DNA of 47,649 nt, counting the filler, from Catajapyx aquilonaris (Eukaryota), in assembly GCA_000934665.2 (NCBI GenBank). It is 2 parts of 2 records of this genome, joined end to end, with 100 filler letters (N's around TTAATTAATTAA, not from the genome) between each part and the next. Parts side by side here need not be neighbours in the genome. Positions count along the whole stretch, not along the records: positions 23,859 to 47,649 come from JYFJ02005629.1; 1 more part is not named here. One strand, 5' to 3'. The position numbers and the translations under genes were made by a program. This document shows positions 26,160 to 47,260 of the stretch, piece after piece. Numbering within the stretch: the stretch's first letter is position 1; each line of letters begins with the position of its first letter. Under the pieces are notes generated by a model that was given only the letters and a program-made list of their open reading frames with translations, did no database searches and had not been told where the DNA came from.

Positions 26160-27552
26160 ATGAAGTATGTACAGTTATTATTTGTTCTCTGCGTAGAAAT
26201 TTTGCTGCACAACTGCCTAGCACAGGTAAAAAGTGACATATTCTTAAGTATTATGTGTCTTAATCTTATTATTCATTTAATTTATTCATTGAAAACCTCG
26301 TTTTTAACATTAGCCTGATGAAAAGTAGGCCTACATGTTGATAATACACGATAAAGAATGTTTCTTTAGTGTCTGCAGTATTTTTACTTTTTTCAATTGA
26401 ACTTAGCCCTCTTGTGTATGTGTGGACTAGAGGCACATTATCCTAATTAAAATTTTAATTAAAATTTGCATATTTATTTATTAACGTTGGGAAATTTGTC
26501 TCTGAAATGAGGAAGGGGACGATGGCTTTCAATCATTTCCTCAGGGTCGTAGATATTAGCTTTAATATCTATGCTGAGGGTGGTACAGGAGTGATATGGG
26601 GAAATGGACCTTGTGATAACGAAGTCATTTATGACATCTCGAGTGATTGTTTACTCGATATACGCCGGAACAGATGTTTCGTCGTCACGCTCTGTATAAT
26701 ATTGACGTCAGTGTTGGGTTGAACCCTGTAGAAGTCTAAGTGATTTGATTGTGGGTACAGTATTCATTTTTGAACATTTGTCTCCGCAGTATCATTACTG
26801 AAATAATGAGCATTAATCAAATAATGCCTAGTACCACCCCTTATGTCATGGATACAGTGTAATACAAATTAAACGTTGCTTACTAGATCTGCTCTCGTTA
26901 TCCAAGGCGCCTGATACTGTTACTCTTCGGTCACAACTTGCTTCTGTGAAATCTGAACAGAATCCTTTAAAACATGGTTTCTCCGTTCTTCAGTGCCAAT
27001 TTCGTTATGAGCTAGAAGAACGATGGCAATTTTGTGAAGATGCATTTCGAGACAGACCGCCGGTACGTATATGAATATGAATAGCCATGTTATTTGACGG
27101 TCATAAGGACTAATTAGTTTGTGATATGACATTTCATACTGATGTCTTATCTTTGTGACAGTGCCGTATGAAATGCCTAGCAGCTCAACTTAATGTGGTG
27201 GGTACATTACTTGTTATGCAGTGCTCTATTAGAACACATTTTAAATGAGATTTTCCCACGTCTCTTGCCAACAGTGGAATACTGCATTACGCACAGTAAA
27301 TGTAAGCGAATTTCAGAAGAAAATTGAAGAATGCAGGAGAACTAATATATTTGGGCACTTGCAAAGACTAGTGGATTGTGTTAGCAGCAACAGTAAGCAT
27401 TATTACTTATTTTTTTCATTGCTATTCCAACTCTAACAGACTTAATTTTGCTCACAGATGGCCGCAACGGAAATGATGGATGCACCCAATACAGGACCAC
27501 ATTAGCAAGATGCACATCTAGAGTACGCGAAATATTGCAAGCACCGAAATAA
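26160..27552 (+). CDS. Secreted 8-Cys OBP-like protein, paralog A (127 aa)
   Basis: Exons 26160-26225, 26994-27062, 27162-27197, 27275-27392, 27458-27552, all GT-AG, phases 0,0,0,1. GCCACCATG start with TATAAAA at 26115. Protein MKYVQLLFVLCVEILLHNCLAQ|CQFRYELEERWQFCEDAFRDRPP|CRMKCLAAQLNV|WNTALRTVNVSEFQKKIEECRRTNIFGHLQRLVDCVSSN|NGRNGNDGCTQYRTTLARCTSRVREILQAPK. Confidence 0.82.
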
Positions 27553-28378
27553 CCTGAATAGGTTAATTATTCACACCTGCTTTGCATTACTGCATAAGTA
27601 ATATTGCCAATAGTGGAATATCTGGAACATTGCAGTTGTTCAGCAGCATGTAAAAATGTAAATGTGATTCTGCACACTTATGCGCACAAGGTTTTTTTTT
27701 CTATTCTTTTTTGTACAACTATGAATAAAACGGATATTAGTCTCGCGTGCATCACGCCAGAATGATTCACTTGTACATCCTGAACCTACAACAAGCGAGA
27801 AATTGTTACATAAGAATCGCGACTGCGGTATCAGGTCAGCACGGCCACCTCGAATACGTCCTTGGCAGACAGGAAGGATGAGATAAAATGCTTGGAAGCA
27901 TCAAGAAAATTTAATAAAAACTATGGCTAATTACATAGATTAATCAGTGACTCAAAATTTAACTTCACTGTAATTTTCTGTGAATTGCCCACACGAATAA
28001 TGATCAATGCGCAGAATATGCTGTACCACATAAACATTTTCTTTCAACAAAAGCCTCGCTGACTGTAATGCACACATTGATAACAATGTAGGCAGGGGGA
28101 AAAAAAACAATTTCCATAAAATAGTACGAGGGCGTCGACCATCATGTCACGATCTTGTGGCAGTCCATTAGACAAAATATTCTGAAGTTTGATTTATGAT
28201 GCATAATTGCGAGACCCGAAGAACAGATGATTACTTTACTACGTCTAACTGAATTTATATCTAATGGTAGTACCAAGGGCAACGGAAACTATGTGAAATT
28301 TATATATAGTCTATATATAAGTCGAAATAATTCCAAATTCACATATTTCGACTGTTTAGCCACCAGAAGCATATCAAA

Positions 28379-29067
28379 ATGGGACTCTATGGATTGATAT
28401 TTTTGCTTTTCGCAACAGTGTTAATTCCGCAGGAGATCTTCTCGGAGGTAAATTCTGAAGCGAATGGCTATAAGCAATAGAGAATGTTTATATTCGTACT
28501 CACCTTTCAAGTGTCCAGTGGTAGAGGATATTAGAAGATATTGGTCTTCCTGCTCCCAAAGATTTCGAGGTCAAAACAACGCTCCTGTAAGTAAGACACA
28601 TTTTAATTCATTTGGCATCAAGTGCATTAGAGAGTTGAAATAACATGATTTTATTATATTTCATGATAGTGTCGTATGAGATGTTTGCTGCAGAGAATGA
28701 CAGTAGTACGTACAGTATATTGTAGTATGAAATAATAGAACGTCAGTTATACTCTAGGCCTATAATCAGTAATGCATTTTTCTTTTAGTTGGAAAACAAT
28801 GGGAGGATTATTGACGTACAAAAACTGACCGACATGAGTAACGAGTGTGAATATTACGCTTCTTACGATAATTTACAATCATTGGTCCACTGCATCAATG
28901 ATCACGGTGAGAATTTTTACCGATCAATTTTTAACTCAAAAATTAATACTCATAATGCTCATACAGCTAGCCCTCCACGAAACAACAACCGTCGAAGGTG
29001 TGCTAGATTTCGTCCATTGAACCAATGCATCAGAATGGTGAGAACAACTCTGAATGGACCACAGTAG
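28379..29067 (+). CDS. Secreted 8-Cys OBP-like protein, paralog B (132 aa)
   Basis: Exons 28379-28447, 28512-28586, 28670-28705, 28789-28906, 28967-29067, phases 0,0,0,1. Protein MGLYGLIFLLFATVLIPQEIFSE|CPVVEDIRRYWSSCSQRFRGQNNAP|CRMRCLLQRMTV|LENNGRIIDVQKLTDMSNECEYYASYDNLQSLVHCINDH|ASPPRNNNRRRCARFRPLNQCIRMVRTTLNGPQ. Confidence 0.82.
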
Positions 29068-44549: not shown

Positions 44550-45028
44550 CATACGCAATAAGGCTAAAACTGAGAGTAATTATTGCGCATCTTTGGCAGT
44601 TCCGTCATGAGATTTGATTTCGTGCAGGCCAGAGACATGCATTCTATAGTGTTGGAATATTCCTCTTACAGGCCATAAATTACAATGAAATGTGAAATAA
44701 TAGGGGGTACCTACTATGATTACCAAACCAGGATATTATATCATAATTTAAAAAAATTTCATAATACAAAAAAGGAAGTGCGGTTTATTCTCTGTTGCAT
44801 GCGATCTTCCCTATGAACACATACAACAGCTTCACGAGAGATTCTATACGTACGGATTAGAAAACAAATTCATTTCCTTTAATGAATACAGAACCACTAC
44901 GCAGCATTCGAAAGAACATACACTGACCCTCATGCGACAACGTACGGTATATACAGTAGCCTACGATATATAAAACCGGTCAAGGTACAGAGCGTACGTA
45001 GGGCAGTACATGGGCCACGATATCCACG

Positions 45029-47260
45029 ATGCAGGTGTCTCTTCTGATGATGTTCTTTCTGCTAGGGACCTTCTCCCTGCAGGAATCTCAAGGGAAGGAA
45101 TCTGGTGACGTATGCTGGATTCTTTTACGTTCTGTTACAAATATAGGTGCTGTACAGTGTACAGTACATGACATTATTTTTTTGAAGGGTGTACTTACTA
45201 TTTTCGCGTTCATTGCAGTGCAAGGTACCTAATAATCCCATAAAACTCATCAAGGGATTAATGCCTTGTGTTCCACATGCGGTTTCGCAAAATTATCCAG
45301 TAAGTAATATTTTCAAACTTACATGGTATAGGTATAATGAATAGTAAAATTGATAGGGGTATTTTCACGGATAGTGTGAGTAAATAAGCAGCAAAGGCAA
45401 CAATATTCAACATTGACATGAGTTGAATTTACATCTTATACCACTTATTTAGCAAGATGCCCAAATCAGGTCTATATTGACTGATGTGAGGTTTAATAAT
45501 ATGCATGTGTACAGAACATCACGCTATACCGTATGTGTGCAGGTGGACTTCATAATATCCTTCAGAGAGAGGGAGAAGGAGAAGGAGGGAGTGAGGGAGG
45601 GAGAGACGTATCAATATTTTGGTTGGCTAAAGATTTAAACCATAATCTTATACATATTTCACAACGTATGTCTGTATGTTCCCGATGCAAATTAATACGG
45701 AGGCCTCGACATATGCCCCAGGGGGGTTCCTTAGGGGTAGTTTTTAACGGGGAAGGTTTTTATCACATTGGATATGACCTCCGAGGTCATCCTTGGCCGC
45801 AAGAGGCGAAAAGGCAGAAAAGCAGGAACCCCGGATGTAGCATCGATATGACGCATGCAAAATATACCGATACGTTACGTCGTATCGGTACTTTGCTCCA
45901 AGATGGCTTCCATTTCTTTCACAATTCATGTTCGATCAAAGGAATCCCGCCTTATCTCTGCCTCCTAGGGATAATCTGGACCCGGGAAGGTGCCACAGGG
46001 AAAGGCCACAGGGAAAGGTCACAGGTCGGTGAAGGTCGGGAGAGTCGAAGCGAAAGGAGGGGGAAGCCTGGAACACTAATTATGACATAGTGTGTTATTT
46101 GGACTTCATGCACATACAATATGCTCCATGTTACAGGTATGCAACATTGTATAGCCATAATATATTATTGCAAAGGTAACTACCAAATCAATGAGTTACT
46201 CCTATGGAAAAGTATTTCATAACCTGAGCACAACGCCGGGTATCCTGCTAGTTGACAATAATAATGACTGTGAGCAATTATTATGAAGTCCCAAAGTGGA
46301 TAAGATTGTCTTTAAATTTTAAATGCTATTAATTAATTGATTTTTTAATTCCATGACAGTGCCTAATGAAATGCGTCGTCACTGCTCTATCTACATGCTC
46401 AGTAAGTATATACAGTAGTCTAGTTGTTATTTGCTAACACAATTTGACTAACCCTGGGGTTCACATTCAAGACACCTGCCTTATGTGACACTGTCCTTAT
46501 TGTCGAAATACCTGATAATGCTTTTACAGGGACCAGATTCATAACATAGTATTCGTCCAAATGCACAAGTAATATATTACTTCATTTATATCAATTACTT
46601 TAAGCAATGGTTTACATATTTATACTGATAAAAACACCTTTAATATGACTCGCATGCGAGGGATGGCCAAAGAGGGACAGGGCCCCGGCACTGAGGGTGA
46701 GTATTTTGCCACACCCGCGGTGCACCACTCGGTTTCATGAATACGTGCAGCTACTGGTGAACCACACACGAGCCATTATTTTGTGCTATCTAGTGAATTT
46801 GTATAACGTGAAATGAAATAATATAATTTGATATATTTTCACATCCCACAGGCCGACAGTGATGGACCTGCTTTCCCTGTAGCTGATCAATTACAAAATA
46901 TGATTGCTGAATGCAACAAGATGTTTAGTAATCCATTATTAGCCCTCGTCAAGGAGTTAATTGAATGTGTCATCAAGTCCGAAGGTAGGTACAAGTTAAT
47001 CCAGACTATACTAGGATATGTGTGAGGAATGAAACAAAAATAGTGGTAGCAGTGTGATTGCCCACTACTTTTCCAGCCCTCCATCATTGAATGTTGTGTT
47101 ATAAAGTACTGTATTATTTTCATCATAATAATATTGTACAAAAATTTCAGGGGCAGGGATACTGGAGCAGATTATTACGAGTGCAGATTGTGCAGTATGC
47201 TATGGACTAATAAAATGCATTCCCGATAAGTTAGATAAAATGATTAAGAGCAAAGGTTAA
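45029..47260 (+). CDS. Secreted OBP-like protein, paralog E (148 aa, 10 Cys in mature chain)
   Basis: Exons 45029-45109, 45219-45299, 46360-46401, 46852-46984, 47151-47260, phases 0,0,0,1. TATATAAAA at 44967. Protein MQVSLLMMFFLLGTFSLQESQGKESGD|CKVPNNPIKLIKGLMPCVPHAVSQNYP|CLMKCVVTALSTCS|ADSDGPAFPVADQLQNMIAECNKMFSNPLLALVKELIECVIKSE|GAGILEQIITSADCAVCYGLIKCIPDKLDKMIKSKG. Confidence 0.8.
45646..46251 (+). mobile_element. Non-autonomous Helitron-like element in intron 2 of paralog E
   Basis: A|TC start followed by GTATGTCTGTATGT; 3' end CCTGAGCACAACGCCGGGTATCCTGCTAG|T. The 5' boundary is approximate. Confidence 0.5.

Follow-up and report, generated by a model that had tools for sequence, protein, structure and literature searches.

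Classic insect odorant-binding proteins (OBPs; PBP_GOBP, PF01395) carry roughly 15–20 residues ahead of their first conserved cysteine (C1). The spacings C2-X3-C3 and C5-X8-C6 have been described as constant across insect OBPs (PMC2808328). According to the description of OBP genes of cockroach and other insects, a phase-0 intron follows the signal-peptide exon and precedes short coding exons (PMC6175461), and tandem arrays are given as the usual layout of these genes (PMC6175461, PMC4377858). Several variants of the cysteine skeleton have been reported. OBPs of the ABPII type in Tribolium are described with an additional cysteine located 7 residues after C3 (PMC4377858), while the Plus-C motif of Zhou et al. 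includes C4a between C4 and C5, and C6a 9–11 residues after C6 (PMC2808328). In the German cockroach, a clade of 71 Plus-C genes was reported, most of them located in one 61-gene array with a Plus-C majority (Robertson et al., 2018, PMC6175461). For many of these proteins, weak expression in antennae is described there, and a role other than olfaction is considered possible. In Periplaneta, the mature form of a Plus-C protein has 215 residues (PMC5232348). The OBP-like proteins of chelicerates and myriapods are reported to be devoid of C2 and C5, the same two cysteines as in Minus-C OBPs (PMC5381604, PMC5232348), and their family is described as small in copy number, with little gene turnover (Vizueta et al., 2017, PMC5381604). 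Finally, the pattern C1-X6-8-C2-X18-19-C3-X2-C4 is given for chemosensory proteins (CSP, OS-D) (PMC2808328).

The window considered here is the whole stretch of DNA that was analysed (47,649 nucleotides, filler included). On its + strand, between positions 26160 and 47260, lies a group of five genes, each with many exons and each encoding a small secreted protein with eight cysteines. Gene models were rebuilt from the sequence by script (g1, 26160–27552; g2, 28379–29067; g3, 29681–34877; g4, 35357–37430; g5, 45029–47260) and agreed with the original prediction of five + strand genes sharing one exon plan, with identical first and last coordinates. Each gene consists of five coding exons, and GT..AG borders were found at all 20 predicted introns. 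The length of exons 1–3 is a multiple of 3 and that of exon 4 is 3n+1 in every gene, resulting in the intron phases 0,0,0,1 proposed previously. Signal-type hydrophobic N-termini are encoded by all five genes, a cysteine opens exon 2 in all of them, and exon 3 is invariably a microexon of 33–42 nt with CxxxC at its start. A six-frame translation of the whole window revealed the motif C[RQL][LM][KRQ]C[LV] five times, once at the predicted exon 3 of each gene and nowhere else. Once the predicted signal peptide is removed, the mature proteins would have about 100–120 residues.

Exon 1 of g1 (26160–26225, +) starts with ATG, encodes the hydrophobic signal-type N-terminus in 22 codons and ends in phase 0 at the donor gtaaaa. 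It is followed by the Cys-initial exon 2 (26994–27062; C-X12-C) and by a 33-nt exon 3 (27162–27194) with CRMKC at its start and an alternative donor at 27197 (GT, same phase). Exon 4 (27275–27392) contains C-X14-C and ends in phase 1, and exon 5 (27458–27552), for which an alternative acceptor is present at 27440, contains C-X9-C and the stop codon. The fourth gene has the same organisation on the + strand: a signal-type exon 1 (35357–35428), a Cys-initial exon 2 (35546–35626; C-X11-C), a 36-nt exon 3 starting with CRLKC (36066–36101), exon 4 with C-X14-C and a phase 1 end (37088–37202), and exon 5 (37351–37430), where one extra cysteine precedes C-X8-C and the stop codon. In g5 (+ strand), the signal-type exon 1 (45029–45109) and the Cys-initial exon 2 (45219–45299; C-X15-C) are followed by a 42-nt exon 3 (46360–46401), which starts with CLMKC, shows a further cysteine 7 residues on and ends at the donor gtaagt. 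Exon 4 of g5 (46852–46984) contains C-X17-C and ends in phase 1; exon 5 (47151–47260), with alternative acceptors at 47157 and 47187, contains C-X2-C-X5-C (X8 from first to last) and the stop codon.

Contigs of one public run (X1, the type of which is not on record) are spliced exactly at predicted introns. All four junctions of g3 were found spliced on a single contig with a depth of 182, which supports each exon of the gene (+ strand): the signal-type exon 1 (29681–29755), the Cys-initial exon 2 (30113–30193; C-X12-C), the 36-nt exon 3 with CQLQC at its start (30487–30522), exon 4 with C-X14-C and a phase 1 end (32027–32141), and exon 5 with C-X8-C and the stop codon (34810–34877). The last of these exons lies behind an intron of 2668 nt, in which a reverse-transcriptase-like ORF was observed. 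For g2 (+ strand), the junctions between exons 1 and 2 and between exons 2 and 3 were spliced in an X1 contig with a depth of 8. This links the signal-type exon 1 (28379–28447) to the Cys-initial exon 2 (28512–28586; C-X12-C), both flanking junctions of which are covered, and confirms the acceptor of the 33-nt exon 3 (28670–28702), which starts with CRMRC and has an alternative donor at 28705. A 550-nt contig of X1, with the same depth of 8, has a 3′ piece (28966–29193) that begins at 28966 and extends beyond exon 5 (28967–29067; C-X8-C, stop codon) into the 3′ UTR. The length of this contig fits a transcript from which every g2 intron has been removed (77+75+33+118+228 = 531 nt) rather than the 677 nt expected if introns 3 and 4 were retained, which suggests splicing on both sides of exon 4 (28789–28906; C-X14-C, phase 1 end) as well. 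Both g2 and g3 are spliced genes. Also embedded within the array is a gene for a secreted nuclease, for which a spliced contig occurs in X1 too.

The relationship between the five genes was examined by pairwise local alignment of the mature proteins against 300 shuffles per pair. The observed score was reached by none of the shuffles for seven of the 10 pairs, by 2/300 for g4–g5 and by 5/300 for g1–g3. Similarity in local alignment was no better than chance for g3–g5 (67/300). Nine of the 10 pairs thus back paralogy at ≤5/300 shuffles. The five genes are intact paralogues derived from an old tandem duplication.

The cysteine gaps of the mature proteins were found as proposed in the consensus C-X11-15-C-X9-14-C-X3-C-X25-29-C-X14-17-C-X12-18-C-X8-9-C (11–15, 9–14, 3, 25–29, 14–17, 12–18 and 8–9 residues across g1–g5), and cysteines beyond the eight are present in g4 (one) and g5 (two). 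C-X3-C was found in all five genes, and the terminal pair is C-X8-C in four of them and C-X9-C in g1. Eight published classic OBP patterns were then fitted with six cysteines of each protein (cysteines 1, 3, 4, 6 and the last two, the other two being left out). Six of the eight patterns (Lepidoptera, Coleoptera, Diptera, Hemiptera, Hymenoptera and Orthoptera) were matched by g3 and g4, whose distances C1–C2 (26), C3–C4 (40) and C4–C5 (12) lie within these order-level patterns. The only pattern matched by g1 and g2 was the dipteran one, the loosest of the set, and none of the eight was matched by g5. The general motif of Zhou and the Tribolium classic motif were fitted by none of the five genes. 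With eight cysteines placed at random, the narrow classic patterns were matched in 4 to 76 of 200,000 trials. Chemosensory proteins (CSP, OS-D) were considered as another candidate and rejected: in no gap series is an X18–19 gap followed by an X2 gap.

The array proteins resemble classic insect OBPs in their signal-type N-terminus, their mature size of about 100–120 residues, the C2-X3-C3 and C5-X8-C6 spacings (X9 in g1) and the tandem arrangement of their genes. All five genes also have a phase-0 intron behind the signal exon and short coding exons beyond it, as described for insect OBP genes (PMC6175461). They differ from classic OBPs by two extra conserved cysteines, one located 11–15 residues after C1 and the other 25–29 residues after C3, and by having almost no segment before C1, which lies at the mature N-terminus or a few residues from it. 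Furthermore, most published spacings do not accommodate g1, g2 or g5. Only g5 shares the extra cysteine 7 residues past C3 described for the Tribolium ABPII type, from which it differs by further extra cysteines and by longer C3–C4 and C4–C5 distances (PMC4377858).

Searches for OBP homologues were done with fragments. Pfam scans (E up to 10) covered 21 pieces at exon level plus a read-through of 92 residues, and no PBP_GOBP match was obtained with 15 exon translations, with five exon 3 ORFs or with the 92-residue piece, which comprises g2 exon 4, the in-frame intron and exon 5. No OBP chain was among the PDB entries listed by sequence searches with this read-through or with exon 4 and exon 5 profiles. 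A 40-position profile of exon 4, run against 1.84 billion representatives, gave six matches, all of them long multi-stretch proteins and none an OBP, and two Atlas look-ups with fragments returned no OBP cluster. Since every query was a fragment, these blank searches are weak tests. A crude Chou-Fasman pass, an unreliable method, did not predict the array proteins to be mainly helical.

The blank results at exon level would also be expected if g1–g5 encoded small, cysteine-rich secreted proteins of a lineage-specific family without homology to OBPs, the spacing being convergent or coincidental and the role a different one, e.g. in gland, gut or reproductive secretion. The same explanation is favoured by the narrow published OBP patterns being fitted by just two of the five genes, by the position of C1 at the very N-terminus, and by the secreted nuclease gene inside the array with its spliced contig in the same run. 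It appears doubtful nevertheless: exact C-X3-C and C-X8-C pairs, correctly ordered and spaced, seldom arise by chance (the 4–76 of 200,000 trials given above), the genes agree with described OBP genes in their tandem arrangement and in the phase-0 intron behind the signal exon (PMC6175461), and no alternative family with a fitting cysteine pattern was found, that of CSPs being absent. We consider that g1–g5 most likely form a lineage-specific branch of the insect OBP (PBP/GOBP) superfamily.

The original prediction had proposed an OBP-fold carrier family with an extra disulfide pair. The anatomy and the spacing speak for it, while the fragment-level searches brought no OBP match. The cysteine spacing, the size, the secretion-type N-termini, the phase-0 intron behind the signal exon and the tandem arrangement are plausibly, and best, read as those of a putative OBP-like carrier with one additional pair of cysteines. 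Such proteins would be small helical carriers with three disulfides, made by the six cysteines of classic OBPs, around a hydrophobic pocket; the additional cysteines, one following C1 and the other C3, may form a fourth disulfide. They could keep small hydrophobic compounds in solution and transport them in an extracellular fluid, e.g. the sensillar lymph.

Ordinary membership of the described eight-cysteine Plus-C clade, which would leave nothing new in the array, has to be weighed against this assignment. As described for the German cockroach, the 71 Plus-C genes, mostly in the 61-gene array, also encode eight-cysteine proteins, with short exons after a phase-0 signal-exon intron and in tandem (PMC6175461). 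The published Plus-C features make such membership unlikely, however. Regarding the C4a/C6a motif (PMC2808328), no cysteine is present between C4 and C5 in g1–g3 or after the terminal pair in any of the five genes, the extra pair being located after C1 and after C3. Compared by description, the cockroach genes typically have 7–9 short coding exons after the signal exon, against five coding exons in all here (PMC6175461), and the mature proteins of about 100–120 residues contrast with the 215 residues of the Periplaneta protein (PMC5232348). The cockroach arrays, as described, also count against the earlier suggestion of a largely undescribed system, as large tandem arrays of eight-cysteine OBP genes with short exons are already on record (PMC6175461).

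A non-hexapod arthropod host, with a diversified array of the chelicerate/myriapod OBP-like family, had been raised as well. Those proteins are likewise described as small and secreted, with an OBP-type cysteine skeleton and a proposed carrier role (PMC5381604), and a PP1-like gene in the window, about 55–59% identical to PP1 whichever eukaryote group is compared, would be as compatible with such a host as with any other. Both C2 and C5 are kept in all five genes, which are moreover arrayed, whereas the chelicerate/myriapod proteins are described without these two cysteines (PMC5381604, PMC5232348). A host of this kind is therefore highly improbable.

By the published layouts, the positions of the extra pair match none of the Classic, Minus-C, Plus-C, locust type-A/type-B and Tribolium variants. 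The array might represent an undescribed OBP subclass with an N-terminally short scaffold and a fourth disulfide between the cysteine after C1 and the one after C3, amplified in the lineage and used mainly outside olfaction; this proposal is a tentative one. As most likely a carrier family of the insect OBP kind in a tandem array, g1–g5 would make up a conventional gene family in which the arrangement of cysteines is somewhat unusual.

The array is of modest use and does not represent a new type of system. It adds five unannotated genes, of which two are supported by transcripts, to the carrier proteins known from a genome with poor annotation, and the locus illustrates how microexon genes of this type elude ORF-based views. 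Should the two extra cysteines pair in a fourth disulfide at a novel position, the family would provide a further variant in the structure of the OBP scaffold, which would be relevant to OBP classification and to the use of OBPs as binding modules.

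Five genes on the + strand were rebuilt from the DNA, which is eukaryotic and has about 39% G+C. A + strand scan for ATG-led hydrophobic N-termini returned a start at 38142, which is part of a different gene, and the five starts of the family at 26160, 28379, 29681, 35357 and 45029. For each of these five, open segments bounded by AG and GT and carrying the cysteine motifs of the original prediction were enumerated. This gave one consistent five-exon model for each gene, namely g1 (26160-27552), g2 (28379-29067), g3 (29681-34877), g4 (35357-37430) and g5 (45029-47260), with assembled ORFs of 126, 131, 124, 127 and 148 codons, respectively, predicted to encode secreted OBP-like proteins with eight cysteines. 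All 20 introns are of the GT..AG type, and most have pyrimidine-rich acceptors and GTAAGT-like donors. Exons 1 to 5 measure 66-81, 69-81, 33-42, 115-133 and 68-110 nt. In all five genes the lengths of exons 1-3 are divisible by three and that of exon 4 is 3n+1, which results in intron phases 0,0,0,1; both these phases and the outer coordinates 26160 and 47260 had been proposed from the sequence and were reproduced. Alternative GT or AG sites at least three bases away exist for exon 3 of g1 and g2 and exon 5 of g1 and g5, and leave the cysteine pattern unaffected.

Transcript evidence was obtained from one public sequencing run (X1), of unrecorded kind, which contains 0.26 of the sampled words; no RNA run was listed as matching. 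Contigs of X1 were compared over positions 26100-46099. A single contig skips 29755/30113, 30193/30487, 30522/32027 and 32141/34810, so that the predicted junctions of g3 were recovered in four of four cases. For g2, two of the four were found among the joints listed (28447/28512 and 28586/28670, the first two). The contig of g2 measures 550 nt, and the position at which its 3' piece begins, 28966, is one base off the predicted exon 5 acceptor; as the g2 pieces minus all four introns sum to 531 nt, against 550 nt in the contig, the other two junctions were inferred to be used. Since predicted introns are skipped in the contigs, the models of g2 and g3 are real, and at least these two genes are transcribed and spliced. 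X1 also includes unspliced pieces at low depth and, for the neighbouring nuclease gene, a spliced contig, which is consistent with cDNA plus a share of pre-mRNA or DNA. Bins of g1 and g5 exons 1-2 are without X1 cover and no g4 joint is among those listed, which has no bearing on expression; support for the models of g1, g4 and g5 comes from their intact frames, canonical signals and conservation within the family. The fourth intron of g2 (28907-28966) has 60 nt, keeps the reading frame and contains no stop codon. The observed contig is spliced; were this intron retained in a message, the encoded protein would be unchanged except for 20 additional residues between cysteines six and seven.

When all 47.6 kb were translated in six frames, the microexon motif C[RQL][LM][KRQ]C[LV] was present in five places, which are the predicted exon 3 positions and no others. 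Together with the rebuilt models and the X1 joints, this confirms the initial observation of five tandem microexon genes. Relatedness of the mature proteins was assessed by pairwise local alignment, each score being compared with those of 300 shuffles. The observed score was reached by no shuffle in seven of ten pairs, and by 2 and 5 shuffles in two others. The g3-g5 alignment was at chance (67 of 300 shuffles), so that g5 stands apart from the other members. At the DNA level the genes share no direct repeat of 80 nt or longer, and the duplications are thus considered old; the array would have originated by old tandem duplication.

In the mature proteins, the gaps between successive cysteines are 12, 9, 3, 25, 14, 12 and 9 in g1; 12, 11, 3, 25, 14, 15 and 8 in g2; 12, 13, 3, 25, 14, 12 and 8 in g3; 11, 14, 3, 25, 14, 7+4 and 8 in g4; and 15, 10, 3, 7+21, 17, 18 and 2+5 in g5. 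Chemosensory protein (CSP) identity was ruled out by this pattern. On the same basis, we take saposin-like, insulin-like, CHH/ITP, WAP and Kunitz families to be set aside. One survey giving order-level patterns describes the C2-X3-C3 spacing as constant throughout insect OBPs and C5-X8-C6 as present in most (PMC2808328). Cysteines 1, 3, 4 and 6 and the last two were mapped onto OBP C1-C6. The resulting distances of g3 and g4 (26/3/40/12/8) match the patterns of Lepidoptera, Coleoptera, Diptera, Hemiptera, Hymenoptera and Orthoptera, and lie outside Zhou's general motif and the Tribolium classic motif, in which C3-C4 or C4-C5 is tighter. Those of g1 (22/3/40/12/9) and g2 (24/3/40/15/8) match the broad dipteran pattern only, and g5 (26/3/47/18/8) matches none of the patterns. 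In 200,000 trials with eight randomly placed cysteines, the broad pattern was matched 491 times and the narrow ones 4-76 times, which is only a rough measure of specificity because real cysteine-rich families are not random. A rough Chou-Fasman and hydrophobic-moment calculation, of low reliability, gave no indication of a largely helical protein. Classic OBPs differ from g1-g5, in which C1 lies at or beside the mature N-terminus.

The extra cysteines were compared with known OBP classes as far as the available text of each source describes them. The Plus-C motif calls for two further cysteines, the first lying between C4 and C5 and the second beyond C6 (PMC2808328); none of g1-g5 shows it. 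Extra cysteines are described as C3', C4' and C5' in locust plus-C type-A OBPs, whereas in type-B one precedes C1 and another follows C6 (PMC6062766). In Tribolium variants they precede C1, follow C6 or lie 7 residues after C3 (PMC4377858); the last is the position of an additional cysteine of g5, as in the ABPII OBPs of that beetle. The extra pair of g1-g5 (after C1, and 25-29 residues after C3) is unlike all of these layouts as described. Relative to the layouts described in these sources it is a variant, the locust types and cockroach OBPs being compared by description only. A cockroach array of 61 genes, most of them Plus-C OBPs, has already been published (PMC6175461). Chelicerate and myriapod OBP-like proteins are reported to be without the same two cysteines as Minus-C OBPs, C2 and C5 (PMC5381604, PMC5232348). 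Both are retained in g1-g5, which argues indirectly against the scenario of a non-hexapod host, in which the array would have been a largely undescribed system.

All family and database queries were contiguous pieces of the genes rather than spliced proteins; with such short queries and a fast-diverging family, these searches have little power. No PBP_GOBP match was obtained in Pfam with 15 exon translations (E up to 10), the five exon-3 ORFs, or a 92-residue ORF made of g2 exon 4, the in-frame 60-nt intron and exon 5. Likewise, no OBP chain was found among PDB sequences with the 92-residue piece or with profiles of exons 4 and 5. Chance-level Pfam and PDB matches were to SAS-6 C-terminal coiled coil, CX9C, DUF717, DUF2031, SPATA45, HopQ, eS27 and trypsin inhibitor. 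The 40-position exon-4 profile gave six matches among 1.84 billion representatives, all long repetitive proteins (599-2977 residues, 3-11 matched stretches) and judged spurious. Against a set of 5.8 billion proteins (longer proteins only), g3 exon 4 returned three candidates, none scoring; even a self match was missing, indicating that these genes are absent from that collection. Atlas look-ups with g5 exon 4 and the g2 read-through piece (with 20 intron-coded residues) gave no OBP, but either no usable match or nematode clusters at scores of at most 0.85. In metagenome contigs, 147 pattern matches to the read-through piece yielded no confirmed one. Exon-3 peptides matched unrelated letter strings in full-text literature, and no paper with these sequences was found.

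Other features were noted in the window, where Rfam found nothing. Between g4 and g5 lies a gene encoding a secreted DNA/RNA non-specific endonuclease (38142-40910, +), with exons at about 38142-38211, 39229-39859 and 40373-40910. It has a hydrophobic N-terminus, its last exon matches Endonuclease_NS (E 5e-25), and both introns are confirmed by a spliced X1 contig of 1519 nt; the endonuclease exon, searched for a sign of the host clade, gave no match. The fourth intron of g3 holds long open frames of reverse-transcriptase-like appearance (32351-33457, +). The 207-aa ORF at 32646-33269 had no Pfam match at E 0.01; these frames are presumably a decayed retroelement that enlarged the intron to 2.7 kb. 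A 221-nt element is present in two inverted copies (20946-21166 and 44282-44502), 98% complementary and 23 kb apart in the window. X1 contig depth is about 920 in the bin around the second copy, far above that of any other bin; the element is probably a repeat that is young, present in many copies and transcribed. A divergent, intron-split PP1-type serine/threonine phosphatase paralogue is located at 17646-18270 and 20292-20723 (+; Pfam Metallophos and STPPase_N). The PP1-like exon gave 7468 matches at about 47-59% identity (only about 55-59% to PP1 of any eukaryote group among the 120 best listed), distributed across all eukaryotes and thus without a clade signal. Exons of a nose-resistant-to-fluoxetine-type gene (about 10856-15600, +) include a match to the NRF N-terminal domain that falls short of the Pfam cut-off (E 3e-05); hydrophobic exons of membrane-like character come after it.

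Taken together, the OBP-like reading of the original prediction is partly supported and is the most likely one, and the missing PBP_GOBP match among the fragments counts weakly against it. The genes probably make up a branch, specific to this lineage, of the insect OBP superfamily; their products would be secreted, helical carriers in which a fourth disulfide is added to the three classic ones. The main rival, an unrelated secreted cysteine-rich family whose spacing is convergent, is regarded as unlikely. Under either reading, the locus is an array of genes for small secreted proteins, of a kind common in insects.
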